From: Protoeuglena noctilucae
Lineage: Eukaryota
Reading direction: 5' to 3'
Length of the DNA: 64,000 nt
Assembly: GCA_958009085.1 (NCBI GenBank)
Contig: OY253684.1
Location: 434,001-498,000 of the forward strand
This document shows positions 1 through 58,400 of the stretch, one piece after another; the stretch's first letter is position 1, and every line of letters starts with the position of its first letter. The translations under genes were made by a program, and so were the position numbers. The notes beneath the pieces were generated by a model that searched no databases, was not told the origin of the DNA, and saw only the letters and a program-made list of their open reading frames with translations.

Positions 1-388
1 GTGGCAGTGGGGGTGGCATTGAGGGCGGCAGGGAGGGTAGCGTTGAGGGTGGCAGTGGGGGCGGGGGTGGCAGTGGGGATGACAGCAAGCGGACGAGGTG
101 ATGGTGGGCGGGGCGGTGAGCGAGGGTGGGGGTACAGGTGAGGCGCAAGTCAGCCAGAACCCGACCACCCATACGGGGTGCTGACCACCGCACTACACAC
201 TATATCCCACCATACATGCCCTACCACCCCTTGCCCCTCACCTCCTTGGTCCAGAACACCTGTCCGCAGTTGAGGCTAGTTGAGGCTAGAGACAAGACAA
301 CAACCATACCACCGCTCCCTCACCTCCTTGGTCCACCTGGCTAGGTACAAGACAATAACCATAGTGGTACCACTCAATCCCCCCTCAC

Positions 389-3300
389 CTCCTTGGTCCA
401 GAACACCTGCCCGCAGTTGAGCACGAGCTGCCCCGGCCACTGCAGGATCCACGTGCTGCGTTCCTTGTTGGGGAAGTCCTCGATCGCGTCTCTCGCCATC
501 TTGTGCACCGTCTGGTAGATGACCTCCTCACACTTGGTCAACCACGCCTCGACCGCCCCCACCTTACCGGGGCTCACGGGTTCAATCCACGGGATGCGCT
601 CCTCCTCGACCGAAACCATCCCCGTGATGTCGCCGTTTGCGTGGAACTTGAACCGCGCGACCGCCTCGAATATCTTCTGCGTGAAGTCCTGTATCTTGAG
701 GGGATCCTTGCACTCGGACAGAATCTCCAAAAGCTGGTCGTTGGAGAGGAAGTAGAAGCGCGGGAAGGCCATCTTCTTCGTCTCGAGAAACTCGTTGAGG
801 CCCTTCTCGACAACGTCCAATAGCTCGTTGGCGTGGGTGAGGGAGTCGAGGAGTCCATCCATGTCGGCCACGTGCGTGAGCAGCGGGTCCTGCACGGTGC
901 GGTCCATGACGCCCCGCCAGATTGCGTCCATGTCCCGGAAAGCCATCCCCTCCGTCGGGATCTGCCGCACGATCTCCTCGGACCCGAAGATCGGCTGCAG
1001 GTACATCCACCGGCCCTGGCACTTGAGCCACTCCTCCAGGATGGACTGCAGCCTTGTCAACAGCGACTCCCAGGGTCCGATCTCGCGCATGTGGGGCTTG
1101 GCGAAGGGAGACGTGCCCATGGCCTGGACCTTGATGATGTGGTCGTCCAGCAGCGCCTGGGCCTCGTCGACGGGGCCGCCCTTGAGGATGTACGTGCCGG
1201 TGCGGTCGTACTCGGCGAGCTCCAGTGACAGCCCCTCCCAGTCTCCCTTCATCTTGCCCAGCTGTTTCTCGATGGTAAACTCCCGCGACGCCCGCTCGGA
1301 GATCGCCACCAGGCGGCCCACGGGGTCAGGCACCTCGCACTCCTCGAGTTTCTTGATCAGCTGCCCCAGCCGCATCTCGTCCGGGCGGATCTCGATGCCC
1401 ACCGCCCCCACCATCTCCGCCCAGTGACGCGCCTTGAGGCCCTTGTTGCAGATGGCGTGGATGAGGGGCAGGTGCACGCGGAAGTTCTCGATCTTCTGCT
1501 TCGTCTCCAATGCCAGGTTGAGGGGGTCCTCCAGGAGCTGCAAAGAGGGTGGGGGTGGGGAGGGTGGTTGGTTGAGGGTGGGGGTAGCAGTGGGGGTGCC
1601 AGCAGCAACAGCACCGCACCACACAAGCACCCCTGCCTCCCTCGCTCCCTCGTCCGCAACCCCACCACCGCATCACTCACCACCACTGCGCCTCCACTCC
1701 TACCCACTCCTGTACCTCGCTCCCAACCCGTTACCACCCTTTCACCCCCTCCCCCCACTCACCCTCTCCACCCACCAACCCCCCTCGGCACCCACCCACT
1801 CGCACCCACCCACCCCAACCCCACTCACCCTCCCCCCCGCCGACCCCGAGAAGACCTTGGTGAGCTTGTCAATCTTCCGAGTGCACTCCAGCACCTCGTT
1901 CTCAATCTCCTCCGGATCCAGCGCCCCGAACGTGATCTCGTGGTTGTTCGTCCACTTGTTGTAAGATTCGAAGAACTGGTGGGAGGTGGTCCATAATATG
2001 AGGAAGGGCTCGAGGCGGGAGATGGCAGCACCGATGTTCTGGAAGCTCGTGGTGATCATTCCGAGGATCTTCTCCTGCGCGTTGATCTCCTCCGACTTCG
2101 CCTGGGCCTCCCTGGGGATGTGGGATATGGGTGGAGGGGTGTGGGTGGGGGTGGGGGTACGGGTGGGTGTAGAGGGGGTGTGGGTGTGGATGTGGGTGGG
2201 GGTGGGTGGATGGGGTGTCGCATTTGGGGCTGAGAGGGTAGGGGCATACGCCACTTTCCATACAGAACTCAGCCTCCCCTCGAGCCCCCCCCCACACACA
2301 CGCATCTGAGCTTCTCCATGAGCTCCACCAACACACGCATAAACATCCACATGAACCCCTCCCTGTTCCCCACCTCAGCTTCTCCATGAGCTCCACGACC
2401 CTCGCCGAGTGCTTGGCGCGGCTGACCACCCCCCCCAGCGTCTCGAATTCGTCCACCTTGGCCTCCAACGCCGCCACGTCCTTCTTGAACGCCTCAACCA
2501 CGTCCTTCAGGTCCTGCGGGGACACAGAGATGGGGGGTGAGTGTGAGATGCAGGGAGAGTGAGAGTCATGCGGGGCATGTGGGGACGAGGGAGGGATGGG
2601 CATGGGATGCAGTGAGAGTGAGAGGCTTGTGGGGCATGTGGGGATGTGAGTTGATACATGTTGCATGCAGGCTGAGAGTAGAACATAGGTACAGAGATGC
2701 AGAGAGCAGAGGTAGGGACATGATGATGCAGAGAACTGCGCTCGCTCAGCCTCGTATGCACCCACAGACACATCACATCGCCCCTCTCCCACCCCCCCCC
2801 CATCCTCGCCTTCTGGAATCGCTGCTCCTCGGCGTTGGCCCTGGCGATGGCCTCCCTCATGATCTCCAGCATCTTCTTGGGCCACTGGTACGCCTTCATG
2901 CTCCACACGAAGTCCTGCGATGCGATGGGGGAGGTGGGGGAGGTAAGGGGCGTGTGCGTGCAAAGTCGCTATGTTAAAGATCGCAGGCTGCCCTGTGCAG
3001 GGTTCCACATTCCCATCCCATCACCACCACCATCACCATCACCAATACCATCCATCCCCCCCATTCGTCACACGTAGGCATGACACCACCCCTCAGGCGT
3101 CACCTCTTCCTCCACGGGGAAGCAGAACCGCTCCAGGTACTCGTCTCTCTCCTGGTTGAACTCAATGTCCTCGCGGAGCTTGTCCTGGTCCTGCTGGCAC
3201 TTGCTGCGGGGGAGAGGAGAACACACGCGTGCTCATCGCAACAAGCTCATCACTTGCTGCCGTTCCGCTCATCTCATCTCTCCTGTCTCGGCCCCAGTGC

Positions 3301-6300
3301 CCGGCGTCGCGCAGCAGTCAGAATCAAATCCACTCTCACTCACCTGTAGAACTTCTTGAGCGCCACCACCTCCTCCCCCGTCTTGCTCACGCTCGAGAGC
3401 TTCCGCTGCATCTCCTCGTACGCCTCGCAGATCTCCTGGGATGCGACGAGCGACATGCAGTGAAGATGACGATTGCTACCGATGCTATATGTACCAGGTT
3501 TGAGAACGGCCATCACACGAGTCCGCAGAGCTGGTATGACTGCACCACACGCAACCGGCTCAGCACCACCCTGCGCACCTGGTTGCTCTGCGCGTTGGCC
3601 CTGCGGATCTCCTCGAGCAGCGTCCGCACCACCGCGTTGGCCTTGTCCACCAGCAGCTGCTTGAAGCCCGCCGCAGAGACCTCGAACAGCCCCGTGCGTA
3701 CGTCCGCCATGCACGTCGCCTGCAGGGCGGAGGACGACGCGCTGCAGTCCATCACTGCCACAGAGACTAATGGATAAGCCATGAACAGATTCGCAAAAGG
3801 AGGTGACCCATAGGACATATAGAACAGCAGCTGAACGTGCCATCGCACCATCGCCAACTGTTTGCTCCTTTCGCACTGAAGCACTTGCATAGTACCCCCA
3901 GAACCTTCCATTTTTAAAAACAAAGCAAATTGCCTTCTTCCGCGCACCTGGATGGCGGCGGCGGCCTTCTGGAAGCGCTCAAGCTCGTCCGTGTATTGGT
4001 CGAGGCTGGGCTCGGATTTGTTGAACTCCTCGCAGTGCGCGCGGACGTCGAGGGGGACGAGGAACATGAAGTCGTCGAAGAGGCGGGCCAGCGCGTGCGG
4101 CGCCTGGGTGTTGGCGCGCACGATCGCCCGCACCCGGTCCACCGCCCGCGTCACGCACTGCTCCCCCAGCTGCACCGTGGGGATCTCCTGGTCCTTGGAC
4201 GGGGCCACCTGGGGAAGAGGAATCATGATATGGAGATTTATAAAGAGACCATGTGGAGGTGTACATCCCAGGCTGTGGCATATCCGCATGACGCCTGCGT
4301 TGCCGCCCCGCCCCGATATCCCACCCACCTGCACGACGCCCGCGTTGCCCCCCTGCCCCGCCTCGACCCTGGGCAACCCCTGCACCGCGAGGGTGAAGTG
4401 GTGCAGCACGTCCACGCACATCTCCTCCACCTGCTCGAACGACGGCGAGAAGTCCACGGACTGGTCGGGCGAGACGACGAGCTCCACGCGGAAGGCCGCC
4501 GGCTGGTGCCAGAACAGCCGCGTCGCGTCGGGGTCCACCTGGGGGCGCGGAGAGGGCGAGAGGGATGGAATGCATGGGGTGCCTTAATGGGAGATGGGTG
4601 GCAGGTGCAGTGCTTGCGGCGAGGGGGCGCCACGTGTGACAGGATTGGTTTCAGGCGACGCTGGTACTAGCTGTGCGTGAGAGGGTCAATTGAATGTGAC
4701 GCTGCCCTGTCAGGTCCACCCAACCGCTTCCTCCAAGCATCGCGCCCCGCATGCACCACATGCCTCCCGTCACCTCGGGCACGGCGGGGTGCGACTCGAG
4801 GAACCCCACGAAGGCGCTGAGGGAGTCCTCAACCAGCTGCCGCAGCTGGTTGGACTGCAGCGTGGCGATGGAGCGCCAGTAGGCCTCGGAGTCGTTGTTG
4901 ATGAAGAGGGGCGGGAGGCGGCGGAACACCTCGGAGCACTTGGGCACCCACACGGTCCAGAGGAGGTTGCGGATGCGCTCGCACTGGCCCATCTGGTGGG
5001 CCTTGAACTCCTCAATGCGCATAGGGCACTGGTTGCGGAAGCCCAGCGAGGAGACGTCCACCAGGACCTGGGTGGGGGGTGGTGAGAGGTGACGGATGGG
5101 GTGTGGTTAGGGCTGCAAGGTGGGGTGCGAGGCGGGTGCGACGGTGGGTGCGGGGTGGCGTGTTGGAAATGCACAAGTGCAGGGTCCCTCCCTCTTCGCT
5201 TCAGCCGCATGTCATGTGGCAGAGTGCCTCACCTTGTCCGCCACGCCGCTGTGCGACTGCCAGATGGTGGAGAGCTCGATGGCGTTGGGGGAGAGGGTCT
5301 GGAGGGACCAGGCGAGGTCGTGGGTGGCCTGGTCCACCGCCACGCGCCACGAGCCGGGGAGCTGCCGGAAGCACGGCCGGCGCCACCAGTTGCGCCACAG
5401 GCTGTACTCGGGCCACACCTGCGGGGGCGCCGAGGTGGGTGGCGTGAAACGAAGCGCCGGGCCAACGAGCAGGCCGCAACGGACCCGGCACTGCCGTCGG
5501 CCATCGACAAGATTGCACCGCAAACCAGGCGCCAGCACATTCGCCTCTATCGACCAAAACCCAGCCTCACCTTGGCCAGGGCGTCCAGGCCCAGCCTCTG
5601 CCGCTCGACCGGGCTCACAATGGCGTAGTCCACGATGGCCTTGCGCATGCTCTTCAGGTAGTCCCTGCGGCCGAGGAGCGGGGCGAATGCAACATTATCG
5701 CGACGTTAGACGTCCCGACGCCGCACCGCGACCAGCCCCTCGCGTCCCTGCCGCACTGCACCGAGCACGTGCCACCGCCACCACCACGTTGCGCCTGCCC
5801 TGCGCCTCTCCGGTCACCTGTGCATCTCGAGGATGCTAGACTCGACCATTTCGTAGTAAAACTCCTCGCTGACGCCCGGCGGGGCCGTCTGCGGGATGAG
5901 CGTGAGGGCGTTGGCGGCCCATTCGTCACGGTAGGGTGCGATGTGCCGCTCGGAGATCCCCTCCTCCAAATAGAAATAGTATCGCATCACGGCGTCCGCG
6001 ACGGTCTGCACGTCCGCCACGGGCGTGTCCACCGGCAGCACGGTCAGCCGGGGATCTGTAAAAAGGGCAGGAGGGGCAGGGTCAGGGTGGGTGCAGCGTA
6101 CGGTGCGCGTGCCACACCCTCTTTCTAGCTTCGACGGAACGCGAGCGAGAGAGGCTTGGAGCATCAGAAGCTCGTTCTTGGTGCCGCGCGCGCTCACCCA
6201 TGTCCACGCCATCGCCCCACGGGACGAGGATGCCCTCGATGGGCCGCCCCTCCTGCGCCATCTGCCGCACGCGCACCACCTCGGGGAGGCCCTCGCTGGC

Positions 6301-8780: not shown

Positions 8781-9213
8781 TTCCAGCGGGCTTTCGACGT
8801 GTGCAGGCTTGCCAAGGTCCCAGCGCTGTCGGGCTCCGAGGCGGGCTCGCAGTCGTGCGAGTTAGTCGAGCGACAGCTCGTCACCTGCATCGCTGCGCAG
8901 GTCCAGCCGTGCGTGGATGTCTACGTGAGTGGGTGTGGCGTTCCTCGCGCTGGCCGAGCACGGCCACGCTTTCGATCGGGGCTTGTGCTCTCGTGCACCC
9001 CACCCCGCCCCACCAGCCTCGCTTCCCCCTTTGATACCCCATCTCTGCTCTGCACCACAGGTTGACTACCAGCGATTCGCCGACCAGCTCATGAAGTACG
9101 CGCACGGGCGCCCCAGCAAGGAGCAGGAGAAGGAGCGGGAGCAGAAGTATGCCGCCGTGAAGGCCTGCCTCGTGAGCCGAAAGCTATACCCATTCCCTCA
9201 CCCTCCCAAGTGA
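8781..9213 (+). CDS. Small spliced hypothetical protein, possibly with a degenerate EF-hand
   Basis: AG/GT-bounded segments with GC3-rich codons: FQRAFDVCRLAKVPALSGSE, VQPCVDVY, VDYQRFADQLMKYAHGRPSKEQEKEREQKYAAVK. The start is not determined. Confidence 0.35.
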
Positions 9214-29214: not shown

Positions 29215-32097
29215 ATGGCCCCCAGGGCCACTCGGCGCGCCGGGGGCCAGGTGAGGGCTGATTGCCGTGATTGCGAACGACTTGACTATGGGAAAGCTCC
29301 GGCAATGCCCAGGGGACTCCCCGAGCCCCTTCACTCTTCGGGGCGGGTGCCGGCAGAGGGGACGTGCCCGCCGTCCCCCCGCGCGGCGCGCACGCGCCGC
29401 ACTGCCGTTCCGACCACTCGATGCATTTGCTTGCTTTCGCATACGCGGATGTCGCGCCTCGCTGGATTGACTGATGCCGCGAATGGCCTGCTTGGGCGCA
29501 CATGTGTCCCCGTAACAACGCAGGTGGCGGGACCCGCCGCGGCCGCCCAGGCCCCCGCGAATGACATCGATCGCGCGGATGAGGACGGCGATGTCACTTA
29601 CATTGTTGGACGCGGCGATGGGAGTGACACGCGCGACACGGACGGCCTGCGCGCCGACCACAAGGTGCGCCGTGGCGGCAACGGCCCCGCCGCGCGTGCG
29701 CGTCGTGAGGCGGGCCGCGCACCTGTCCTCGTGTCCTTCGCATACAGAGCCGCATTCAGTGGGCCAAAGAACAGATGGAGAAGGCCTACCGCGTCGAGGC
29801 GGGCCTGGAGCCTGCCGCCAAGAGCAAGCCGCGCGCCCCGAGCGCCGCTCGCAAGGAGAAGACCAAGCACGACATGGTGCGGCACGTTATGACATGCTTT
29901 CATCCCTGGCTTGGTTGGCTTTGCTATCCGATGCTCGCCGGCGCGCAAACCAGGTCGGCGTGATCACCGACCAGCACTCGGTGCAGGCACGAGCTCAGCG
30001 CGCCCGCCGCCGCGTGACCCCCGCAGCTGACCGCCGGAGAGGCTGTGGCGGCGGAGAACGATGCGTTGATGACGGACATCATGTCGCAGGTCGAGCAGGA
30101 GAGACTGGAGCGCATGCGGCGCAACCGGGCCGTGATGGCAGAGGTGCGGGATGGGTGCAGTGTGGGTTTGGGGCAGGCACTGTGTGACGGAAGCTCCCTT
30201 GTCACACATCTGGTGCTTCGCAGTGACAGCATCGTTCCTCTACCAACCCTTCCAATCCAAACAACTGGCACCTCGTTGCATCGCTCCCCACGGTCTCTCC
30301 TCCACACAGATGGGTCTCTTGGAGGCGGCGGCGGACCTGCGGGGCGCGGTGGAGGCGGAGAAGAAAGAGCGGTCGGCGGCACGCAAGCAGCGCGCCACGG
30401 ATGCAGCGGCTGAGGTGGCAGATCCGGAGCGTCGGTCGTCCCGTGCCAAGAAGGCCGTGGAGCGCCTGGGGGAGTTCGCGACGGGTGAGGTGGCTGGGAT
30501 GCGCCAGTGGTAGGGACAGGAGGGAATGGTTTGTGGTAACTTGCTGGGGAGTTGGCGATAGGTTAGCTGGTGGGCTAGGTCACTCCCACGCATGCCAACT
30601 AGCACACACACCTCTCTGCAACACCCCCACACCTCTCCGCTCTGCTCTCCTCGCAGGCAACGAGCCCCTGGTGGGCGAGAAGCAGCCGGGCAGCTCGAGC
30701 AAGTGTGCGGTGTTTGGCGAGGTCGAGGGCATCAAGCCGGGTCACCTGTGGCTGTCCCGGGTGCGGGCGTCTCAGGACGGCGTGCACGGTCCCTGGGTGG
30801 GGGGCATCCACGGGCCGCCCAGCGTGGGGGCCTATTCGGTCGTGCTCAGCGGGGGGTACGAGGTGAGAGATGGGTTGGCGGCGATTGCGAGTGAGCGGTG
30901 GGGCTCACTAAGCGGTGATCGTGGGAGTGACCGTGATTGTCACTCTTTTATCCACCCCTTGCCTCGCTGCCCCATTCCCCGGGACGACCTGGACCGTCAC
31001 TCTGTCGTTGTCTCTTTGATGTCTCTTTCATCACCATCACCACCCCTCTCTTACTCCACCCCCCCAGGACGACCTCGACCGTGGCGCGGACTTCACCTAC
31101 ACCGGCTCCGGTGGCCGCGACCTGAGCGGCAACAAGCGCACGGCCCCGCAGTCACGGGACCAGGAGCTGCAGGGGTCCAATCTGGCGCTGGCCGTCAGCA
31201 TGTGGCGCAAGCTGCCCATCCGCGTGGTGCGCGGGTACAAGTGCGACGCCAGATACGCGCCCAAGGCGAGGATGGGGGGGGTTGGGGTGACGCGTGTTGA
31301 TGTGTTGCATCGATGCTTGGCACCTGATGCGGGGATGGGTGTGGATGAAGCGAGACGTCGATCGCTGCAGGATGGCTGTCGTTGTCATGACAATCGATGT
31401 CAACCGTGTCGAACTCAAATGACTTGTGCGTTCTCTGCAGGAGGGCTACCGTTACGACGGTCTGTACCAGGTGGTGGACATGTGGCCGGAGATCGGCAAG
31501 AGCGGCTTCGTCATCTGGCGGTACCACTTCCGGCGGTCGGAGGGGCAGGGGCCGGCGCCCTGGGAGGAGGCGGCGTGGAGGGTCAAGGAGGCCAAGAAGG
31601 TGGGGGTGGGGGTGGTGCATTGGTTGGGGTGAGGGTGGTGCATTGGTTGTGTGTGTGGGGATCGAGGAGGCAAAGAGGGTGAGGGTGGAGGTGGGGGTGG
31701 CGACGTGGTATGTGGGGTGGTGCGTTGTTTGTGTGAGGCTTGATAGGCCGCTGGTGCGAATGTGAAGGCGCTCAGCATGTCTGCATATCATCAACAAGTC
31801 GCACCGCCACGCCGCCCCGAGACTCGTAACTGTGATCTCAATATCAGTATCATCACACCCTCCCATTCCCAGATCGAGGAGTTGAAGGCGGAGAACGGGG
31901 ACGCCCCGCTGATCCCCAAGGGAACTGGGACCATGGCACTGGCGATGCGGAGGAGGGCAAAGGAGGCGAAGGTAGGGGCGAAGAGGGGCGGGAAGAGGGC
32001 GAGGGTGGTGGAGGAGGAGCAGGGAGAGGGGGCGGGGGTTGCGGTGGGGACGAGGAGCGGGGCGGGGAGGAGCAGGCGTCAGCGGGTGGTGGCGTGA
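29215..32097 (+). CDS. SRA/YDG methyl-DNA-binding domain protein, UHRF1/VIM-type SRA with no visible RING, PHD or SET
   Basis: [90 protein letters not shown]. About 10 exons from ATG 29215 to TGA 32095-32097. Confidence 0.9.
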
Positions 32098-32261: not shown

Positions 32262-32266
32262 TGTAA
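32262..32266 (+). promoter_or_regulatory. Candidate chlorophyte polyadenylation signal TGTAA (SRA gene 3' UTR)
   Basis: TGTAA about 165 nt after the SRA stop. UGUAA is the established near-upstream element in Chlamydomonas-type algae. Confidence 0.35.
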
Positions 32267-44396: not shown

Positions 44397-47300
44397 TCAC
44401 GCCTCCTTCCTCCCCTTCTTGATCATCGCCAGTCTCCTCCCCAGCCGCTTCTGGAACTCGGTCTTGCCCTCCTTGCGGCCCTCGGGCACGTCCGACTGGG
44501 GCATGACCGAAAAGTTGAACGCCGTGGCCTGGGGGGGAAAGCGATGGGGGCAATGAAGGGGGTTGAGAGGCACAGCGAGGAGTGGAATGCCGTGGCCTGA
44601 GAGGGCGGGCGATGGGGAGGATGAAAAAAGGTCCAAGTGGGGCATCACCAAGAAGTGGAACGCGCGCGTCGCTTATGGAATCCCACACTGTCCTTTTATT
44701 CCCACTACCTTCATTCTCACTCTCACTCTCACCCCCACCCTCACCCTCACCCTCACCCCCACCCACCCCACCCTCACCACCCCACCCCTCACCTTGGGCG
44801 GCTGCGCCCGTGTCCGGTACTCCTCATCCCCGACCTTGGGCTTGGCCGCCTGGATCTCCCTCAGCTTCCTCTGCACCTCCGCTTCATACGCCCTCGCCTG
44901 CCTGGCTCTTTCCTCAGGTGTCACCTCCCCCACCTTTACCCTACCCGTCGCCTCCGCCCCTCCCCTCGACGCCCCCACTCCCAGCTGCTGCATCCAGCGA
45001 GTGACCAGGTCGCCGGCAAGGCGGCGATTGGCGGGGGTCTCGTCTGGGCATTTGGAGAGGAAGGCCACGGCCTGGCCCAGCTGGGACTGCTTGAGCTGTG
45101 GGGGGTGGGTGGGGGTGAGGGTGGAAGTGAGGGTGGGGGTGAGGGTGGCAGTGGGGGTGACACTGATCACATCTACACCCCGCCGTCCCCCCGCTACCTC
45201 TGTCACTGCCACCCCATCTCTCTCATCTCTCTCCCATCTCCTCCCCCCCCCCCCCCCTGCGTCCTCTCATCGTGTTACTAGCTCTGTCAATGCCACGCCA
45301 TATATCCCCATCTCTCTCATCTCTCCCCCATCCATCTCCCCACCTGCGTCCTCCTCATGTCGTCCTGCAGGTTGATGCGCATGTGCTGCAGCTGCTGCAG
45401 CACCGTGGTGCGGATCTTCACGTTGGGCAGCGACCCGTCCGGCAGCACCTCCAGCCAACGCTTGAGCGCCACGAGGAGACCCTCGGACAGCAGGTGGTCC
45501 TGCAGGTGCTTCTTGACCAGCTCTTGCGATACCTGGGGGTATGGGGGAGATGAGGTAGTGGTATGGGTGTGGTAGTGGTGTCGGTAGTAGTATTGCATGT
45601 ATGGGTGGGAGAAATAGGGCCGTGTGTCTGTGCCTGCCATGCTTTCAATGACTGCTATCCATGCCATCCCATCCATCACCACCCATCACCTCCTGCAGCA
45701 TCATGTACTTGCGCATGCACGGCCTCCCCTCCTTGCTGGCCCTCTCGTCCTCCTCAGCCGCGTGCTCCATGCGCTTCACAAACACCTGGGGTGGATATAT
45801 ACGTGAGGGAGGGGGATGAGTGCAACTAGCATCGACATTTGTGTCATCTGTCACCCCATCCACCCACCCCATCCCATACCACACCGCACCCACCCCATCC
45901 ACCTACCCCAATGAACCCCACCACCACCGCACCCCCTCGTCTCATCTCATCCCCTCTCATCCCATCTCATCTCATCCCATCTCATCCCATCTCATCTACT
46001 CACATGCGCGATGTTCTGCGCGTTGGCCTCCTCTTCTTGCACATCCTTGGACTTCTTCTGGCGGGGCTGCACCATCTTCTTGAACATGTCCTTCAAGTCC
46101 TCGTCCAACGTAGCCAGGATCTGCAGTATATATGACAGCGGCGGAAAGATATTGGGGTGATGGGGTATGCGCGGTGAGGGAGCAATCGCCCTTGCCCGCA
46201 CTGCTACCCCCATCGCCATCCCCACTGCCACCGTCACTGCCACCCCCACTACCACCCTCACCTTCACCCTCACCCCCACCCTCACTGCCACCCCCACTGC
46301 CACCCCACTGCCACACTTATCACCCTCCTCACTCCCACCCCCACTGCCACCCTCACCCCCCCCCCCCACCCCTCACCTGCTTGTCCTCCTTGTTCCCACC
46401 ACCCCCCGCCCTCCCCCCCTTGCTCTTCGACTTCCCCCCCGCTTCCTCCGCCTCCTCCCCCTCCTCAGCCTCCTCTGCTCTCCTCCGCTGCTTCTTGGCC
46501 TTCTTGCCGCGGCGCTCGTCGTCAGAGTCGCCACCGCCCCAGCGAGGGTCGTCATCCTGTATTGGAGAGAAAGGGGGGAGGGAGTGGTTGGATGAGGGGT
46601 GTGTAGATGAGTGACCATGGTCATGGTACGCATGGGTGCCGATGCTCGAGGTCAGCTCAGACTGCCATAACCATAGAATCTCCATCCCACGCCCAGCCAG
46701 CCACCCCCCCGCTACCAACTCAACCCCCCCCCCCCCATCGTCAACTCTCACGTCTTCTTCGTCCTTCTCGATGAAATCCCTGTCCGCCTGCGTCTCCACC
46801 CCCTCCTCGTCGTCGCTGGCCACGGGGCCGTCCGCCCCTTTGGGCTTTTTCTCCGCCTTGCGCCTGCGACGACGCTCGCGGCGACTCTCCCCCTCCGCGC
46901 CCTCCCGGTCCTTACGCTTCTTCTTGCCCTCCTTCTTTTTCTTCTTCTGCGAACGATCGGATGCGCGGGAGGGCGTCCGGCCATCGATACTCGTTGGGCA
47001 AAAGGACGAGGCAAGGAAAACGCGCCCTGCTTCTCTCGATCCCCCGCGCCAACGCACGAGGCCGCGCGATAGTAACGTGTACAACATACACCATCACATC
47101 CGCATCTCCAGCACCATGGAACGGGCCTCGCCTTCTTGAGCTCCTCCTCCTCGTAGTCGCTCGCGTCCTCCCCGTCCTCCGCGGGCCGCTTCTTCTTCTT
47201 CTTTTTCTTCCGCTTCTTCTGCAGTGGGTAACGCAAATGATAACGTCGTTCGCCGACCCTCTCCGGGGGCAGCGGAAGCAAACCCGCGGCCGCGGCGCTC

Positions 47301-47728: not shown

Positions 47729-48103
47729 CCCCGGCCCGGCGGACGCGTCCGGGGGTGCAGGCTCAATCGATGCGCGAGAGGGCGATTGGCGAGACCAGAA
47801 CACGCTGACTCGCAGACAAGGATGGTAAGAGTCACAAACTGCGAGCTGCGGGGCGCATCGTCGACGGGCTGAAGGCTGCCACCGACACGGCAGTGTCCTG
47901 CACCGCTCTGGCGCACGATGCGTCGCTTGATTCTCCAATGCATTCGCTACGTGCCCTCTCTTACATTCCAGCGGCCGGCAGCCGATGCGCCGGGGCTGGA
48001 AGGCGCAGTGAATGCGCGGCGTGGGCTGGTGACGCGGCAGCCGCGAGTGCTGTGCGCGCCGAGCTCCCATCTGCCGGCCTTGTGCGGCCGGCTGGTGTGA
48101 AGG

Positions 48104-49087
48104 ATGCGTCTGACGACGCTGGCTGCGACAGGGCCGCGCGCGGGTCCCCTCGCGAGTGGGATAGACAGGGCATCCCCGTCCGCCGGGCCTCTCAGCCGCG
48201 ATGTCGCACGTCGGGCGAGCGCGGGCGACGTGGGCCCCTCATCTCCCTCTCCTCCACCGCCTCCGCCGCGGCGTGCTGCGCGGGGAGTGTCCGGCGCGAG
48301 CACACGCCTGGTGAGGGCGTGAATGTTGCCGTCTCTCTCGCTCAGCTGCGCTCCGTCGGCAGTCGCCACTTAAACCGCTCGGGATATGAGTAAAGTAGAG
48401 TCTCGCCAAAGAAAGTCACCCACAAACCCGCACGGTCGCCGCAGATTGCTTTCGTCATCACTGCGCCGGGCAAACTCGACCAGTACTTCACCACCGGAAC
48501 TCTGCGGCGGGTGAATTGCATCTTTGCATATTATTTACAAGCCATATTGCGCATGTCATTTCTGCGCACCGCTCTATGCGCGCGAGGGAGTGACCCTGCA
48601 TTAAACGGGTTGCTGGTCTCGTGCAGATGGCTTGGTGCGTGATATCGTACGGGTTCGGCTACTACGTGGCCAACACGGTCTCGCTTACCTTCGGCGCCCT
48701 CTCCATCAACGACATCATCGCGGCCGTCATGATGGTGCTTTTCTCGGAAGTGGTCAGGTGGGAGTTGCTCGGAAGGCCACGCAGTATGACAGCCAAGGAA
48801 GGCCTTTGTGTTTTTTGCTATACGAGGTGCATGATATGGCTTAGTACCATCGCGGCGGTGATGGATCAGTTCCTCTGTATTAGTATCCATTTCTGTGCTT
48901 GTCGTCGCCTTCACACTCGCGTCATTTGCAAAGGCCAGAAATCAAACCTTGCTGTGCTGCGACTCGCCCCCGCAGCTACGTGTGCTACACGGCGGACCGC
49001 TGGGACTACCGCCTGCTGTTCCTCAACTGGTTCAAACTGGGGCTGCAGACGGCCTTCCTGGCAGACGCGTTCAAGCTCGGGGGATGA
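48104..49087 (+). CDS. Ycf20-like (DUF565) plastid protein
   Basis: Exon 1 resembles a transit peptide (…STRL). GFGYYVANTVSLTFGALSINDIIAA and C-terminal LNWFKLGLQTAFLADAFKLGG are typical of Ycf20-like proteins. Confidence 0.85.
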
Positions 49088-49250: not shown

Positions 49251-49255
49251 TTACA
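49251..49255 (-). promoter_or_regulatory. Candidate TGTAA polyadenylation signal of IFT172
   Basis: Forward ttaca about 200 nt beyond the IFT172 stop codon. Confidence 0.35.
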
Positions 49256-49457
49256 CCATGCGGCGATCGGTCTCGCGTCGCGGCACAGGCCCGGGCTCGC
49301 AAGCTACCGAATGACCTCTCGCTAGGGACCCCGCTCCCAACACCCTCGCCAAGCCACCCCTACTTGCACCCTCACCCTCAACCTCCCTGCCACCCTCCCT
49401 GCCACCCTCAACACCACCCTCACCGCCACCCGCCCTTCCACCCCCACATCCCACCCC

Positions 49458-52400
49458 TCAGTAGTGGCTCTGCTGCGGCGCGTTGCACACCGCGCAGCAC
49501 CCGAACCTCTCCACGTATTGATTCCAGGCATCCCGGGACGCCACATGAGACGCATTAACCGTGCACGCGTGCCTGTCCTCTACAGGGTACCCCGACACGC
49601 AGCACTGGGGACTGGCGGCCTTGCATCCGTGGCAGGTCAGTGAGCCCTTGAAGGTGTCGGTGGAGCAGCGGTCGCAGATGCGGGTGTGAAGGGCCTGAGG
49701 GGTGGTGGGCGGGTGGGGGTGAGTGGTGCCACACCCGTGCTGCACACACACACCCGCACCCACACACCCACTCTTTCTCCCTCACCTGCTCCACCCTCTG
49801 CTCCATCGACTTCTCCAGCACCCAGTCCCTCACGCGCTCCACCGCGTCGGCGTCCAAGTAACTCTCCGTGGGTAACGGCACTTCCTGTGGCAAGTCCGTC
49901 TCGGTAAAGTCCGCCATCTCAATCGCCGGATCACCACCCGATGCCGCCTCCTCCATCGCATCGTAGATATCGAGGAGTTTGTTCAAAAGCACGAACGCCA
50001 TCGACGCGGACTCGTCGTCCTCGCCGCCCGCCGCGTCGTTGGCCGCGCGCCACGCGGACCCGGCCAGCATGAAGGCCTGGGGAGGGGTGAGGGTGGGGGT
50101 GGCAGTGGGGGTGGGGGTGGGGGTGGGGGTGTGGGTAGCAGTGTGGGTAGGGTAGCAGTGTGGGTAGCAGTGTGGGTGGGGGTGTGGGTGTCGGTGGAGG
50201 TGTGGGTGTGGGTGGGGGGAGGGGGTGTGGTGGGGGTGGGGGTGGGTGTGGGTAGCAATGTGGAAAGTTGGTATGATAAGCAACGATTAATCACCATCAT
50301 AAACATCGTCAACATGCCACCGCATTCTCATCACTCCCCACCCCACAGATACAACCACTCGCCTTGTCGGCAGGCACGGCCGGCACAAGCCTCAGCAGCG
50401 CCGTGGCCTGCATGGCGGCCAGCGCGTGCATCCCCTCCTTCGCGCACTGCTTGTGCAGCTTCAGGTAGTGAGCCGCGTCGGCCATCCTCCTCATCTCCGA
50501 TGCCTGGCTCGCGGGCGCGCCCCCCATCGCCATGCGTAGGATCCGGCGTGTCGCATCGGCGCTCTCCGCGCTGTCCTTGCCCTGAGACAGTGCCAGGCAC
50601 CCCTTGGCGACGGATAGGTAAAGGGGGAGCAGCTTGGGATCGAAGGAGGCCATGTGTTTGTCCAGCACGATGGCTGCACCACCCCAGTCCTTGGACTGTG
50701 CTTTGATCTGCGCGTGGCGTGCCGCGTAGGCGTTGGCCACCTCGGGGCCCATGGGGCGGGCCATCTCATGCACGCGGTCCCACTGCGGGGGGTGGGGGGT
50801 TGGTGGGGTGTGGGTGTGGGTGTGGGTGCAGTGAGGTGGGTTGAGTGGGGTAGGTGGGGTAGCTGACGAGGTGACTGCCTCCACCAATGCACTGACTGCC
50901 ACTCATCGACTAACCCTATTACAACTCCCCCCCCCAATCACCTGCCCCCTCTGCGCCAGCATGTCCAGCGACTGCCACCACTGCACCACCACTCCATCCA
51001 TTACCAGTATAATCATAACCATTCCTCCACCCCCCCTCATGCTCCACCACCCCTCACCTGCCCCCTCTGCGCCAGCATGTCCAGCGACTGCCACCCACCA
51101 CTCCCTCTATCACTATCACTGTCACCACTCCCTCTATCACCATCACTATCACCACCCCTCTCACCTGCCCCCTCTGCGCCAGCATGTCCAGCGACTGCCT
51201 CCCCGCCCCCGCGGCCGCCAGCCCCTCCACATCCCCCGCCTTGGCCAGTGCCTGCGCCCTCTCTGCCTTGACCATCTCCACCAGGTCTGGGTCATTCGAG
51301 GACTCGGCTAACTGAGATGGGGGGGGGGGGGGGGGGGGAGGAGGGGGGGGAGTGAGGGGAAGTGGGAGGGAGTGGGAGGGAGAGAAAGGGAGTGAAAGAG
51401 AGGGAGGGAGGGAGAGAGAGGGAGTGGCAGTGGGGGAGTGAGTGAGAGGGAGTGAGTGGCAATAAGAGGGAGGGAGGGACAGTGAGTGAGACGGAGTGAA
51501 TTTGAATGTACAGGGGCGAGTGAGGCAGCGGTGGCGGGTTGATGCAAGGTGCAAGCAGGGTCGTGACGTCTGCCACCCCACCCGATCACCCATGACCCCA
51601 CCACCCCACACCATCCCCCATCCCCACCCACCCCCCCACCTTCCCCCCCCACCTGTGCCGCCTCCCCCCACATCCCCACCCATCATGCCATCACCCACAC
51701 CCCACCCACACCCATCACCCCACACCCCCCCCATCTCACCTGCGCCGCCTCCCCCCACACCCATCACCCACCCATCATCTACCCCAATAAACCCACCCCC
51801 ACCCCACCCTATACCCCAACTTCCCCACCCCACCCCCTCATCCCCCCACCTGTGCTGCCTCCCCCCACATCCCCACGCTGGTGTAGACCCTGCAAGCGGA
51901 CCTCACGTCCCTCACTCCCTGGTACAGCTCAGCCGCCGCAGAGTGCCTGCCCAGCTCCACCAGCTTGTCCGATGCGCGCTTGACGACCGAGGGGGCGCTG
52001 TCGGGGGTCCAGTCCTCGGCAAGGGCAACCGCCTGGGGGGTTGGGTGGTGTGTAATGGTTGATCTTACCAGTATTGGTATAACAACTACTATGAGTGGTT
52101 GCCGCTGAGTGTTCGTCACTGCTTTCATGGCCGCTGGTATCATCGCTGCAACACTCGCCTGCTCCCACGCCCTCTGCAGCTTGTCCGGATCGGCCACGTC
52201 TGCTTCGGAAATACTCAAATACGCCTCGATCGCCCCAGGGAAGTTCCTCTGCATCTCCAGCCCCTTCGCGATCGCCAGAGCGTCCAACCGCCGGCCGCTC
52301 GCGCTGTGTGCGCCCCCCAGCACGGCCGCCTGCGCCTCGCGGATCTCCCGCTGCTTGTGGGGGGGCAGCCAGGCCTGGGCCAGGCGCAGGGCGCTCTGCC

Positions 52401-55400
52401 AGTCGTGGTGGTCCCTGGGGGGGGAGGGGTGAGGGGTGCAGGGGGTGAGAGTGTGGGTAGGGGTGGAGGATGGGGGTGGCAGTGAGGGTAGCAGTGGGGT
52501 TGACAGTCACGACACGCAAGCCACCCTCCGGCTCACACCCCAGACACACAGTCACACAGTCAATCACACAGCATTGCACATAGCATAGTTCGTGACTCAC
52601 TTGTACATGTCGACTGTCCTCTCCGGCTCCCATCACAGTCACACAGTATCGCTCATGACTCACACACACAGTCAGTCACACTCACTTGTACATGTCCACT
52701 GCCCTCTCCGGCTCCTTGGCGTCGATGAAGAGCTTCTCAGCCGCGGCAAAGTCGCCCTGCTCAGCCAGGGACGTGGCCTGGGCGATCTGGGGGGAGGTTG
52801 GGGGAGAGGAGAGAGGTGAGGGGAGGGGGGGTGGGATGGGTGAGGGAGAGGGCGAGGTGAAAGGGGTGGGGTGCGTGCGGGGATGGAGAGCGGGAGAGAG
52901 TGGCAAAGTGAAGACACAGAGCATGACCAGCACAGTCATACCACAGCCACCCCATCCATGCCATCCCTGCTCTATCCGCTTCCCATCACTGCTCCTGCTC
53001 ACACCTGTATGTCCCTCACGCTGCCCCAACCCCCCCATTCACTCTATACCACTACCACAACCCCACTGCCCCCATCCCACTCACCTGTACGTCCCTCACG
53101 CTGGCCGCGTCGTGCCCCTCAGCCACCCTCATGGCCGCCGCGAAGTCCTGCTGGTGCAGCCACATGTCGATGGCCTCGCGGGGCTTGCTGGCCTGGATGA
53201 AGTGGCTCTCCGCTTTCTGTGTGAATGGGAGAGAGATGAGAGAGTGGGGGTGTGAGTGACCGTCAATGCTTGCTGGCCTGGGTGAAGGGTGAGCGTGCAC
53301 GGCGTACTTGAAATGCACCTCACCTCCACAGTATCTATATATATCACATATATACAAAGTATAATTACTGTCACCACATCACTCACCGCGAACTCCCCCT
53401 CGTCCTCCAGGTACATGGCGTACTTCAGATGCACCATCTACCATATACATCATTAATATATGTACAATATCTATACCATATACACGTCACTCACCGCGAA
53501 CTCCCCCTCGTCCTCCAGGTACATGGCGTACTTGAGATGCACCTCGGCCTCCTTGCCCTTCGCCCCCGTCTGCGCCAATTCGAATGCCATAGTGAAGTTG
53601 GCACTCTCCACCGCATACTCAATCGCCTGGTCGACCAACCCGTGCCGGCTCAGGTACTGCGCGCCCGCCTCCCCGCCCAAAGCCATGGCACGGGCAAAGG
53701 CGACCTGAGGGGGGGGTAGTGGGGAGTGGGGGTGAGAGTAGGGGAGGTGGGGAGTGGGGGTGAGAGAAGGGGGGAGGTGGGGAGTGGGGGTGGGGGTAAG
53801 GGGTGGGGGTAGCGGTAGGGGTGGCAGTGGGGGAGCGAGAGTGGGGGTTTCACTGTAACCACATCCCAGCCACGCCCCCTCGCCTGCTTGGCGGCGTTGG
53901 GTCCTCCGCACGCCTTGGCCACCCGGAGCGCGTCGTCCCACTGCTCGGCGTTCCTGTACATGTGCACCGCCTGCTTCCACTCGCGGGCCTCCACGTAGTG
54001 CTTCTCGGCCTCGCGCAGGCGACTCTGGGAAATGATGAGGGGATTGGATAAGGTTAGTTACTTATATAATGCGATCAAAAGCATCGACGTAGCGCCCCTA
54101 GCTGCTGCGCCACATCGCAGTCACGTCCCCACTCCCCCACCAGCACCACCCCTCCCCATCCCTCTCTCTCCCCCACCTGCCCCTTCAGCTGCTGCGCCAG
54201 GTGCAGGTGCATCACACATTCACATTCACATCCACACAACCACATACCCATTCACATCCCCATCCCCACCACCCCATCACCTGCCCCTCCAGCTGCTGCG
54301 CCAGGTGCAGGTGCGTCTCGGTCAGCAGCTCCTTGCGATGTTTTGATACTAATCGGATCATGTCTTCGAATCTCCCCTCCTTCTTGTACATGAAGATGGC
54401 CTTGTCGGCCTCGCCCACGGTTAAGTACAGGCGCTCGGCGTCACGCAGGTTGCCTGGGGGGTGGGGGGAGGTGTGTGTGTCAGTAATTGAGACATGCATT
54501 ATATAGCACTAGTACTAGGCACTGTTACAGCCGCATCATTCAGCCGATCGGCATTTGCGCTTGGCAAAACGGAGTGCCCACCCTCACCCCCTCTCATCCC
54601 CACCACTATCACCCCCACCCATCCACTCACCCGCCCTCTCCGCCTCCCCCGCCTTCTGCAGGTACAGCAGCGACCTCTCCGCCTCCCTCAGGCACTCGCT
54701 GGCCACCCTCCACGCCGCCTCGTGCTTGCCCGCGCCCACGTACATCGTCCACGCGTCCACGGGGCAGTCGGCCTCTCGGTAGAGGCGCTCGGCTTCGCTG
54801 AGGTCGCCGGAGTCCTCGTAGTGACGCGCGACCTGGGGAGAGGGGGGGGTGTGGGGGTGGTGATGAGAGGGGTGGTGGTTTTGGTGATGAGATGGTGATG
54901 AGGGGGGTTGGTGGGGTGGTGGTGATTAGACAGAGGAGGGGGTGAAGAGAGAGGGGGGTGATGGGTGTATGGGGTTGGGGGAGAGCAGCCACTGCCACGC
55001 CTGTCACACACACTGCCACCCACACCCACACCCACACCCACACCCACACCCACACCCACACCCACACCTACACCCACACCCACACCCACACCCACACCCC
55101 CATCATCCACCCCCACCCATCTCTCACCCTCTTGTACACGGCCGCTGCCCTGGTGGGGTCCCCCCTGAGCGTGGTGTTGGCGAAGGCCACGGCCTTGGCC
55201 CACTGCTTGGCGTGGATGGCCGCGTCGATGGCGCGGTCGTAGTTCTGCGCCTCGATGAAGTGATTAACAGCAGCGTCCCACTGCCTGCGAGTTCACACAT
55301 GTAATTGGTTGTTAGTATGAGTGGCTGTGTCTCGATGAAGTGATTGACCACCTGCCACCCCCCATCCATCCCCTCACCTGTTCGCCGCGTGCCACTCCCC

Positions 55401-58400
55401 CCAGGTGTCATTGACTCACACCCCCATCCATCCATCCATCCCCATTCACCCCTTCTCACCTGTTGGCGGCATGCCATTCCCCCAGGTGCCATACCATCAC
55501 ACACATCACATGAATCTCTTGACCCACTTCATTCACATCCCTCACCTGTTGGCGGCGTGCCACTCCCCCCATGTGTCCTCCACCTCGGCCACCCTGTCCG
55601 GGAACGACCGCCGGCAGAGCTGGATGGCGCGCTCGAAGCAGTGGCCCCTCACAAACGCATCCAAGGCACCCGCAGCGTCGCCCTGGAGGGAGGGAAGTGA
55701 GGGGGGGTGATACTGTTACTGATACCATCACACAGCGATTTCAGTCATAGAGACCACCCATTGTCATATCATCACACAGCAACACCATCACAGTCACACC
55801 AACACCATTCACGATCACAGTAGCACCATCATCATTCCCCACCTGGTGCTCCATCAGCTCCCCCGTCATCTGGTGCATCCCCGCCCGCTTGAGCGCCTCG
55901 GTCACTTTGGCCACCAGCGACGGCTCCACCCCCGCGCCGCCCTTCCCCTGCCCCATGATGACCTTGGCTGCTTGCGCCGGGAAGCCACCGCGCAGGTAGA
56001 GGGAAATGGCAGCTAAGTAGTCGCCCTCTCTCTCTTTGATCTTGGCTGCCTTGTCCTCCTGGCGACTGTCCAGGAGCCACTGGGGGGGGGGGGAGGAGGA
56101 TGGTGGGGTGAGGTGTCGATGGTAGGGAGATGGGGTGGTGCATGCGCTTGAGCTTGTTGTATCACATCACTCATATCATCACTCACTCATCTCCACTCAC
56201 CTGGTAGTGCATGCGCTTGAGCTTGTTCCCCTCCGGGTGCGCGTACCGGTCGGCCACGCGAATCGCGTCCTCCCACCGCCCCATGCCCTTGTGCAGCTGC
56301 ACCGCCTCCTCGACCGCCCCGTTCTGCAAGAGAAGCGACTCGGCGTCGTCCTGCCGACCGTTCAGCACCTGCAACCTCGCCCGCACCAGCCAATGGTCCA
56401 TGCCGGGGCGGCCCGTAGCACGTTCCGACTCGTGGGCCAGAGCACGGATGCGCTGGATGTACCGGGCCTTGGGGAGGTCGCCCACCGTCGCGAAGGCCAT
56501 CTCTGCGAGAGGGGGCGAGTCGGGGAGTGAATGAGTACATCTGTCATTGGTCATAACCAAGGTTCGTCAGTACTTCGATCAGTCAGTCAGTCAGTCCAGT
56601 GGCAGCCACCAGCCACCACCACGCACCCACCCGCCAACCACCCCAACCCCATCTCCCACTCACCCGCCACCACCAGGTCGCCATCTTCCATCGCCCGGTG
56701 CCCCACCCCCACACACCACACCACCACTCACCCACCACCCATCATCTCCCACTCACCCGCCACCACCAGGTCGCCGTCCTCCATCGCCCGATGCCCCAGC
56801 GCCCGCCACCGCGCCTCGGCCTCCCCCGGCGGCTGCCCCGACAGCACCTCGACCGCCGCCCACCAGTCGCGCCCCTCGATCGCGGCATCAAACACGATGT
56901 TGCTCTCGTCCAATTCAAACGTGTCGACCGTCTCCGGTCCTTGCACGGTGACCTGGGTGCGCCCCTCCACCCGCACCATCCCCGTCACGTCCCCCCGTAT
57001 GGGTATGACCTGCTGCTGGCTGGCGTCAGAAACCGAGTACCACACCACGAAGCTGGAGCCGCTCTGCGCCACCATGACGTCCGACGCGGGGGCCCACTGG
57101 CAGTAGCTGACCGAGGAGGCCATGGTGCGGCGCTGCTGGGTGGAGACGTCGAGCAGGAAGAGGTTGTTGCGCTTGTCTGCGAGAGTGGGGTGAGAGATGA
57201 GAGTGGGGTTACGGTAAGCAGAGTGAGGGTGGGGCTGTGGTAAGCAGACCGTGAGTTGGCATTACGTGGGTGCGCTACAGAAACCACCGAAGCACAAACC
57301 CGCTCATCTTACCCCATCCCATCCCATCCCCTCTCACCCTTGAACATGACGTGGGTGCCCCGGTGCGACATCTCCAGGAACGTGATGCGGTGCTCGTGCG
57401 TCATAGCCGCCAGCGCCTGCCCCGAGGCCAGGTCCACCACCCGCACCGTCTGTGCATCTAACAGGTACGCCAGTCGCTTGACGGCGGGGGTGGCGTCCCT
57501 CGCGGGCACCAGGCACAGGGAGCGGACGTACTTGCTGGGGAACTCGGTGCGGCCGGACCAGAGGGGCTCCGAGGAACCGTACTGGGTGGGTGAGAAGGGG
57601 TGGGGATGGGTAAGGAGGGTGTGGGGGTGAGAAGGGGTGGGGTGGGGGTGTGAGGGTGTGGGTGTGGGCAGGGGGGCTGCGGCGGTGTGCGGGTGGGATA
57701 GGAGGGTATGGGTGTGGACGGGGGAGGGCTGTGGGGGTGTGCGAAATGGCGCACACAGTGCGTGACACTGCCAGGTCCTCTGCCTTCACCTCCATCACCT
57801 TGAGCTTCCCCATGGCACATGCGACACATGCCACCATAACACCCCTGTTAATGTAATGTCCCACCTCCCCTCCCCCTCACCTCGATGACGGTGAGCTCCC
57901 CCATTGCACACACGACACGCCTTCCAATCACATCACAACCCTGCCTCCTCTCCTTCCCCTCACCTCGATGACCGTGAGCTCCCCCGCGGCGTAGACGACG
58001 CACGCGGCCGGGTCGTCGCAGTAGAAGCGCTCCTTGCCCGTGGCGGCCCACTTGATCTCTGAGAAGCGGCGCGTGGCCATGCTCCCCAGCAGCAGCGTGT
58101 GGGACGTGGTGGCCACCACGAACTCGCCGTGGTGCACCTTCACGGAGTCGATCTCGTGACCGTGCGCGGAGCCAACTGGGAGGGGCGGGAGGGCGCGGGG
58201 TGGGGGTAAGCGAGGTGCATTGGGGTTTGGAGGGGGGGAGTGGTGAGATGGAGTGCAGAATGAGCGAGTTATGCAGAGTCATGCAAAGCTGGGCTTCAGG
58301 GTACAAGTGTGGGGCGAGGGGCGTGCCCGCCTCTGCCATGACACGGCTACACTACGCCAGACAGACAGGCTGCCTCTTCCATCCACACACAGCAAGACTC

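Follow-up and report, generated by a model that had tools for sequence, protein, structure and literature searches.

In a 64 kb stretch of nuclear DNA from the alga Protoeuglena noctilucae (GenBank assembly GCA_958009085.1, contig OY253684.1, positions 434,001 to 498,000 of the forward strand; hereafter the window), GC-rich (~65%) and from an intron-rich eukaryote, many introns carry short diverged copies of the end of an adjacent exon together with its splice site. These copies, which we call echoes, form a pattern that is real, statistically solid and unusually dense. They are direct repeats of the exon end and lie within introns; where RNA joints are at hand, splicing uses the first donor (5' splice site) and passes over the copies, which are non-coding. 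We consider it fairly probable that the echoes are the remains of recurrent tandem duplications of 45-150 nt, filtered by splicing, and an ordinary class of mutation, combined with selection on splicing and unequal detectability of its products, accounts best for the pattern.

Echoes of exon ends in the introns

Echoes were sought by blastn self-comparison of the window (word 11 and word 7) and by local alignment of exon ends to their own introns. All the echo and source pairs listed in the first-pass annotation of this stretch, at 14 sites, were recovered within a few bases (Table 1). Two of them (echoes 30983-30997 and 55325-55348) proved to be copies of an acceptor side, not of a donor side, and six copies beyond that list were found (53002-53026, 54094-54112, 53268-53287, 44581-44599, 44631-44663 and 1755-1782), the last of which is of low complexity and doubtful. 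Read along transcription, the layout is an exon end, a GTGAG donor, 35-80 nt of intron, and then a second and sometimes a third copy of the exon end with its donor, ahead of the rest of the intron; there are two echoes in seven introns. Unit lengths are 45-150 nt (median ~85), and the echoes lie mid-intron, 45-230 nt from the donor. By eye, there may be further short decayed pieces of exon end with GGCAGTC at 50870-50905 (−), downstream of the two clear echoes in intron 50783-51164, and they seem to come from the same exon end as the source of the 50938..51203 array.

Introns were taken from gene models made with a small Viterbi gene finder, trained on RNA-supported exons and applied to 12 gene regions. 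In 13 of the 14 training pieces the GC content at third codon positions was 0.75-0.95 (0.75 for 47976-48309); a 15th piece, with 0.63, was checked and kept out of training. After four predicted micro-exons that coincided with echoes had been dropped, 83 modelled introns remained, with a median of 171 nt. RNA joints cover IFT172 and parts of IWS1, and protein collinearity covers IFT172 only; gene-finder models outside IFT172 are unchecked, so that the intron denominators there are approximate. The IFT172 model is consistent with the listed RNA joints, and a 2531-nt RNA contig has a length that agrees with it. In tblastn the IFT172 protein of the closest relative (P0001, 68%) ran collinearly through 20 exons between 59198 and 49461 and used each of them a single time.

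To score frequency, a donor query made of the last 36 nt of the exon plus 6 nt of intron was compared with its own intron, the threshold being the 99.5th percentile of 6806 comparisons with other introns. The query exceeded the threshold in 16 of the 83 introns, where ~0.4 would be expected from other-intron matches, and the acceptor-side query did so in 5 of 82 (4 of 82 at a threshold of 24). Reverse-complement controls gave 1/83 (borderline) for the donor query and 0/82 for the acceptor query, in agreement with the first-pass claim that the copies are always direct repeats. Exon-internal windows at least 60 nt from a junction yielded 1/287 and 4/293, and the intron on the wrong side of the exon 0/71 and 0/71. 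Local high-complexity direct matches with a score of at least 34 numbered 16, against 0.34 expected from the density of distant matches; together with the donor-query excess over other introns, this excludes chance. The GT is kept in 17 of 23 donor-side copies, hence in most of them, as had been asserted. By gene, donor echoes occur in 10 of 20 introns of IFT172 (the half estimated at first), 4 of 19 of dynein, 1 of 5 of SRA, 1 of 8 of IWS1 and 0 of 31 in the remaining genes.

A first-exon scan of metagenomes for IFT172 returned 67 loci, none closer than 56% in its best segment and most of them transcripts. These other IFT172 loci (365 kb) held 12 local high-complexity direct matches, or 0.33 per 10 kb, about one-eighth of the density that the same measure gave in the window (17 matches, 2.66 per 10 kb); this baseline is a weak control because most of the loci are intron-less transcripts.

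Table 1. Echo arrays of the window and, below them, its genes. Positions are those of the window; spacings are in nt.
Feature	Positions	Strand	Source	Echo(es)	Spacing	Remarks
Dynein	234..421	−	exon end 389-421 + donor	317-339 (partial), 234-274	65-82 (147 in all)	234-274/381-421 alignment 40/41; 317-335 19/19 (partial); spacer also duplicated (score 33 vs null maximum 20)
Dynein	2303..2396	−	2371-2396	2303-2328	68	echo donor now AT
Dynein	4284..4360	−	4329-4360	4284-4315	45	donor not kept; 4286-4315/4329-4358 alignment 26/30; donor-query score 40
SAD/SRA, acceptor side	30977..31082	+	31062-31082 (acceptor + exon start)	30977-30997, upstream in intron		
SAD/SRA, donor side	31575..31694	+	31575-31615	31655-31694	80	
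IWS1-like, last intron, acceptor side	44490..44663	−	44490-44531 (acceptor + exon start)	44581-44599, 44631-44663		no RNA joint among those listed
IWS1-like, donor side	45194..45358	−	whole unit 45278-45358	45194-45270		45251-45270/45344-45358 pair within 88-nt match; exon part only 14-15 nt; echo GT now GG; spacer duplicated (52 vs null maximum 31)
IFT172	50938..51203	−	51161-51203	51050-51096, 50938-50979	107, 117	
IFT172	51645..51876	−	51847-51876	51737-51762, 51645-51679		exon borders via protein collinearity
IFT172	52595..52715	−	52680-52715	52595-52630	85	
IFT172	53002..53106	−	53082-53106	53002-53026	80	
IFT172	53183..53543	−	53487-53543 (donor)	53379-53435 (56/57), 53295-53327		
IFT172, acceptor side	within 53183..53543	−	exon start 53183-53202	53268-53287		
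IFT172	54094..54317	−	54278-54317	54174-54213, 54094-54112 (partial third copy)	104 (first echo)	
IFT172	55245..55577	−	55539-55577 (donor)	55455-55488, 55371-55409		
IFT172, acceptor side	within 55245..55577	−	55245-55268	55325-55348		
IFT172	56134..56227	−	56203-56227	56134-56158	69	donor not kept
IFT172	56613..56798	−	unit 56706-56798	56613-56705	93	exon part differs at 3/42 positions, all third codon positions
IFT172	57783..57985	−	57956-57985	57873-57902, 57783-57811	83, 91	
Dynein heavy chain gene	1 to ~8276	−				Pfam; DHC_N2 on 377-1672
MTHFR gene	~9.4-11.3 kb	−				Pfam
Rubrerythrin-domain gene	16-17.6 kb	−				Pfam
Class II DAHP synthase gene	18.6-21 kb	+				Pfam
MatE gene	23.5-24.9 kb	−				Pfam
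DEK_C gene	28.3-29.9 kb	−				Pfam
SAD/SRA gene	30.2-31.7 kb	+				Pfam SAD_SRA
Protein kinase gene	~35 kb	−				Pfam
IWS1-like gene (Med26 domain)	44.7-45.3 kb	−				Pfam
IFT172 gene	49.5-59.6 kb	−				Pfam
LINE-like frame (reverse transcriptase + endonuclease)	60.6-64 kb	+				Pfam

Support from independent DNA and from RNA

DNA matching the window is present in runs that carry the label of a single organism, and also in marine metagenomes and metatranscriptomes. Contigs of an independent marine metagenome run (X5) match it with a single difference in 16 kb, and in six arrays (introns 52415-52685, 52787-53084, 54025-54280, 55285-55545, 56080-56200 and 57582-57963) they contain source and echo together with 0 differences; the supporting contigs span 51832-53408, 53783-54977, 55111-56090, 56084-56679 and 56746-60500. 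Metagenome contigs break at copies that share exact 31-mers. Since these six arrays are whole in independent contigs, and since the copies have diverged from one another, an assembly artefact is ruled out.

The RNA joints were obtained from metatranscriptome contigs, which drop rare forms, and 15 of the 34 joints are listed. All seven joints across echo introns, seen or inferred (45095>45344, 50782>51165, 52413>52685, 52786>53085, 53216>53495, 54024>54281 and 56502>56757), take the exon-proximal donor and skip the echoes, and no echo donor is used among the joints listed. RNA contig pieces 56201-56502 and 56757-57177 flank the echo of the 56613..56798 array, and RNA contig record 21 has a length that fits 57338-57581 plus 57964-58175, the exons on either side of the 57783..57985 array. 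At the echo introns, among these joints, the original splice site is used and the mature mRNA is unchanged.

The first-pass annotation had proposed that the echoes might serve as back-up donors. This is refuted on coding grounds, in line with the RNA joints: if they were used, 15 of the 17 copies that keep the GT would reach a stop and one would shift the frame, and only the doubtful copy 1755-1782 would stay open. In 9 of 67 non-echo introns some interior GT site equals or outscores the real donor, so the organism tolerates strong downstream donors in general.

Probable tandem duplication across the donor

In 5 of 14 arrays (2 of 14 by a strict rule) the duplication takes in the intron spacer as well, clearly so in dynein 1-388 and IWS1 45096-45343, and by eye the spacer can be aligned in several others. 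Such duplication points to a whole unit repeated in tandem and not to a short patch. The seven arrays with two echoes are all regularly spaced, with ratios of 0.73-1.0 between their spacings. A boundary base that differs from the source is common to both echoes of the 50938-51203 array, which indicates that one of these echoes arose from the other when a unit was copied. Tandem Repeats Finder (TRF) detected one junction array only (55363-55577, period 82, 2.5 copies), because two-copy arrays with diverged spacers score too low. Without their extra units the 16 echo introns would be 52-340 nt long, with middle values of 164 and 186; the median of the non-echo introns is 157 nt. Semi-global alignments of spacers against shuffles were too noisy in low-complexity sequence and were not used.

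On the reading that we favour, recurrent short tandem duplications of 45-150 nt straddling the donor would have left one or two extra copies each, the duplicated segment running from 12-49 nt inside the exon, over the GT, into the start of the intron. The first donor would remain at the true exon end and stay in use, and the extra units would fall inside the intron, be spliced out and decay as passengers, with a longer intron as the sole lasting effect. Third copies would come from later unequal exchange or from a second duplication. The process probably acts throughout these genes, and selection and detectability would shape the visible set: exon-internal duplications would be lost unless in frame and tolerated; those spanning an acceptor would mostly mis-splice and be lost, or survive only with a damaged acceptor; and intron-only duplications would fade in fast-changing low-complexity intron sequence. 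At 37439-37719 (+), a coding exon rich in Lys, Glu and Gly holds an in-frame tandem repeat of 78 nt (26 codons) with ~3.2 copies and 74% matches, and a unit of echo-like size can therefore survive in an exon where it is tolerated. It had also been suggested that the echoes are intermediates of intron gain or sliding by tandem duplication; the mutation is upheld by our data, and the gain or sliding is not, since the original donors are in use and the relative's protein is collinear with the exons.

Direct repeats in introns could also have been left by an introner-like mobile element landing near the donor with a long target-site duplication, and in marine algae introners do occur together with target-site duplications (PMC9860276, in the portion of the text available). 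However, the 15 spacers are not a family (all-versus-all scores had a mean of 14.4 and a maximum of 30, like control intron segments), there are few distant high-complexity matches within the window, and three-copy arrays and duplicated spacers do not fit a single insertion. Spacers unrelated to each other rule a mobile element out, and to this explanation and that of an artefact, taken together, we give almost no credence.

Observations that weigh on the tandem-duplication reading

Several observations weigh against the interpretation of the echoes as filtered tandem duplications, and three quantitative features of the pattern remain unexplained by it. We take first the spacers, which in 9 of the 14 arrays are no more alike than composition predicts. 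For these nine arrays we infer a tandem origin from the spacing and from analogy with the other arrays, as we infer the selective filter. Both the unalignable spacers and the sharp fall in similarity 8-14 nt past the donor in several arrays would suit a templated insertion, in which only the exon end and donor (25-60 nt) were pasted into the intron as end-joining filler; polymerase-theta end joining at G-quadruplex (G4)-prone tracts had been named in the first-pass annotation as such a cause. Yet the copies are never inverted (bar the one borderline control) and never come from exon interiors, and the regular spacings, the five duplicated spacers and the boundary base shared by the echoes of 50938-51203 are those of units. 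Most echo introns (10 of 16) also have no canonical G4 motif near their start. We therefore find the polymerase-theta proposal not well supported and templated insertion in general highly improbable. As to splicing, echo donors may see minor use, given that 15 of the 34 joints are listed and that contigs drop rare forms.

A second group of observations concerns preservation. Identity between copies is 583/709 = 0.82 in the exon-derived part, a value biased upward by detection of the echoes through that very part, against 584/954 = 0.61 in the intron-derived part; under simple neutral decay one part should diverge no more than ~twice as far as the other. In the 50938-51203 array the two echoes, compared with each other, show 0 differences in 38 exon-derived nt and have spacers that are 56% alike; these spacers have large insertions, including a younger 27-nt repeat. 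Any of several causes may lie behind this difference: low-complexity slippage and indel turnover, detection bias, gene conversion from the exon, or selection acting on the echoes. Decay followed no rule with distance from the donor: the gradient holds in 3-4 arrays, runs the other way in 2 and is flat in 1-2.

Such preservation, seen even between echoes, would be expected if the echoes were kept for a function, as decoy exon ends that bind U1 or exon-binding factors and tune splicing or retention, or were maintained by exon gene conversion. The same could be said of the best-scoring echoes, in which 13 of 17 differences from the exon are at third codon positions, and of the real donors, which are stronger in echo introns (11.5 versus 8.1 bits, p = 0.001). 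Over all echoes, however, the differences number 19/11/27 at codon positions 1/2/3, and the 47% at position 3 (27/57) is close to the ~46% that our own arithmetic gives for a neutral echo plus synonymous drift of the exon. Retention of GT in 17/23 copies is no higher than overall identity predicts (~80%, or ~18/23, at ~90% identity, also by our own arithmetic), and the detection bias just mentioned inflates the exon-part similarity. With no echo donor among the joints listed, and a broken frame or a stop awaiting 16 of 17 copies, we regard maintenance by function or conversion as very unlikely. Coding constraint on the echoes was likewise tried as an explanation and rejected, as the all-echo spectrum fits neutral decay and the echo donors break frames.

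The third group concerns the distribution of the duplications. Given the observed unit sizes and intron lengths, a model with uniform breakpoints expects proportions of 0.45 intron-only, 0.28 donor-spanning and 0.28 acceptor-spanning duplications. We observed 16 spanning a donor, 4 spanning an acceptor and 3 confined to introns in unique sequence (introns 2514-2809, 20704-20884 and 50077-50362), plus four low-complexity arrays, and counts that ignore detectability reject the model (p = 4e-5 to 1e-3). The arrays provide a calibration, as their intron-derived parts amount to intron-only duplications of equal age, and just 2 of 14 would be noticed without the exon part. For 16 donor events ~26 intron-only ones are predicted, of which ~4 would be visible at 2/14 detectability, and 3 were seen; low spacer detectability thus explains the apparent excess of junctions over intron interiors. 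That exon-derived copies are easier to spot had been raised at the outset as a caveat, and it turns out to be quantitatively important, as it accounts for this excess.

The excess of donor over acceptor sides (16:4, p = 0.012) is what splicing would be expected to produce: with two acceptors in a row, the upstream copy would be chosen and the mRNA spoiled. Among the five acceptor-side copies four are without a usable AG: 30977-30997 has GG in place of AG, and three are without the junction part. The fifth, 44581-44599, retains CAG behind a pyrimidine tract. Less easily accommodated is the exon share of the unit, 0.34 versus 0.54 for uniform breakpoints (P < 5e-5); either long exon parts compete too well as donors and get purged, or breakpoints are non-uniform. 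No junction unit is shorter than 45 nt, when intron-only tandem repeats are mostly 6-44 nt (TRF). In addition, the echoes concentrate in two flagellar genes, with 14/39 introns there versus 2/44 elsewhere.

Composition bears on the same question. Along the sense strand the introns go from a GC skew of +0.39 in their first third to -0.37 in their last, and the first third exceeds the last in 77 of the 82 complete modelled introns. Echo introns are more G-rich over their first 100 nt (0.47 versus 0.37), and a canonical G4 motif lies in the first 150 nt of 6 of 16 of them versus 8 of 67 others (p = 0.024). This would agree with a process aimed at the 5' end of the intron, where transcription through the G-rich start could favour R-loops or G-quadruplexes on the non-template strand and hence breaks or fork stalling, after which slipped or template-switch repair would duplicate a segment starting just inside the exon. 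It would also agree with the donor excess, with a left breakpoint that is always 12-49 nt from the donor, with the low exon share and with the seven introns bearing two echoes. On the other hand, a canonical G4 motif is missing from the first 150 nt of the other 10 of the 16 echo introns, AT- or GT-rich introns without G runs (53217-53494 and 52415-52685) hold two of the clearest arrays, splicing selection also predicts the donor/acceptor and exon-share asymmetries, and the detectability-corrected count of intron-only duplications fits uniform breakpoints. Exon-part preservation, low exon share, flagellar clustering and G-rich intron starts nevertheless keep a 5'-targeted process alive as an unlikely explanation, though one to be taken seriously. 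More broadly, the 5' splice junction might be a hot spot of duplication, with copying coupled to transcription or splicing, exon gene conversion and introns growing from their 5' end, which we think rather doubtful; if it were so, the G-rich, donor-like, low-complexity sequence of these introns would be the ground-down residue of decaying exon ends.

The two polarised ends of an intron might base-pair with one another. Many introns are filled, in either orientation, by a single 12-nt minisatellite family (GGTGGCAGTGGG-like), which in gene sense is G-rich near donors and C-rich near acceptors. It is G-rich on the + strand at, for example, 1-150, 2112-2241, 45082-45172 and 50054-50263, and C-rich on that strand at 43321-43438, 44691-44808, 46184-46384 and 49346-49463. 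Within two minisatellite arrays (45129-45157 and 46264-46354) metagenome contigs have back-joints, which may be length variants or assembly ambiguity.

Implications of the echoes

If the echoes are filtered tandem duplications, introns in a compact, GC-rich algal genome would lengthen by swallowing short duplications that straddle the donor. The arrays also offer a natural experiment in donor choice, in which dozens of identical or nearly identical donors 45-230 nt downstream are passed over, and the donor/acceptor imbalance and the short exon share are measurable signs of splicing selection or of targeted mutation. There is a practical side as well, since echoes resemble coding sequence with a good donor and are a hazard for annotation. 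Our gene finder called echoes as small in-frame exons (54177-54191, 53387-53422, 51058-51087, 56664-56684 and 55378-55394, −), and two stretches of the P0001 protein aligned twice in tblastn, the second time on echoes 53295-53321 and 55371-55409. Automatic annotation of the genome is thus likely to hold false exons.

Genes of the window

The gene map (Table 1) is based on Pfam matches to long open frames, for which 146 of the 158 frames of at least 165 aa were submitted. The window does not fit Pelagomonas, for whose genome 0.45 introns per gene are reported (PMC9481584). Beside IFT172 lies a LINE-like retroelement, an open frame of at least 1121 aa (60638-64000, +) that runs past the end of the window and has endonuclease/exonuclease/phosphatase and reverse transcriptase domains. 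Intron 52030-52155 (−) is of the GC-AG type, with a GCGAGT donor, and is supported by RNA joints from three runs; GC donors are predicted in 10 of the 83 modelled introns, mostly in unchecked models. At 57546 (−), one RNA contig (run X10, depth 5.8) is without 3 nt within an IFT172 exon, which may reflect strain variation or an error. Contig L060, an unrelated one from a marine metagenome, encodes an IFT172 relative and carries a motif starting AGGTGAGCGAGCGAAGCGAGC at four places (4575-4603, 4849-4877, 9900-9925 and 10245-10270 of that contig), which looks like a small introner-like family.

Comparison with known systems

No description of the echo pattern was found in the open-access literature searched, subscription journals lying outside the search. 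As mutations, the echoes belong to a known type but are unusually dense. Gao and Lynch reportedly described, in 2009, internal gene duplications extending over exon-intron borders, and these resemble the echoes in being short within-gene segments, some of them across splice sites, that persist when splicing hides them. In contrast, the duplications of the window are far denser (16 of 83 introns, and 10 of the 20 introns of one gene); they come in very short units of 45-150 nt, mostly on the donor side, and create neither a new intron nor a new splice form.

Tandem duplications over an exon-donor border are also met in human genes, where the internal tandem duplications of FLT3 can run into intron 14. 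In FGG, a duplication of the exon 8-intron 8 junction causes disease and, in the part of the report available, yields mainly aberrant, frameshifted transcripts, correct splicing being rare (PMC9052919). As in the window, two identical donors result; unlike the FGG case as far as that report describes it, the upstream donor is used in the alga and the state is tolerated in many introns.

Exon-like or donor-like sequence within an intron can engage splicing factors and yet stay out of the mRNA. Parra et al. are said to have described decoy exons in retained introns in 2018, and McCullough and Berget G-run intronic enhancers near 5' splice sites; the echoes resemble these in being exon-like or donor-like and intronic. 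They differ in that they derive from the adjacent exon itself and in that no echo donor is among the RNA joints listed.

Introner elements of marine algae, on which Huff et al. reportedly worked in 2016, share with the echoes the direct repeats of host sequence at intron borders and a setting of marine algae with dynamic introns. From what is accessible of a later account, introners are repeated families whose short target-site duplications bracket the whole intron (Gozashti et al. 2022, PMC9860276). In contrast, the spacers of the window are mutually unrelated, and the repeats are 20-60 nt long and internal.

A further parallel is the Rogers model, in which an intron is created by tandem duplication of an exon segment with AGGT (Hellsten et al. 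2011, PMC3265369; review PMC3443670; both in the portions available). There as here, to judge from those portions, tandem duplication doubles a splice motif, and splicing removes the surplus copy and leaves the protein as it was. In that model an exon-internal segment is duplicated and one unit becomes the new intron, whose 3' end repeats the end of the upstream exon and whose 5' start repeats the beginning of the downstream exon. Intron birth of this type was rejected for the window, where the echoes are mid-intron and the C-rich tract before the acceptor is unrelated to the exon; in a search for the corresponding register, no intron among the 83 modelled scored at both ends. In contrast to the Rogers model, what is lengthened here is an existing intron, with the echo in its middle and an acceptor side of unrelated sequence.

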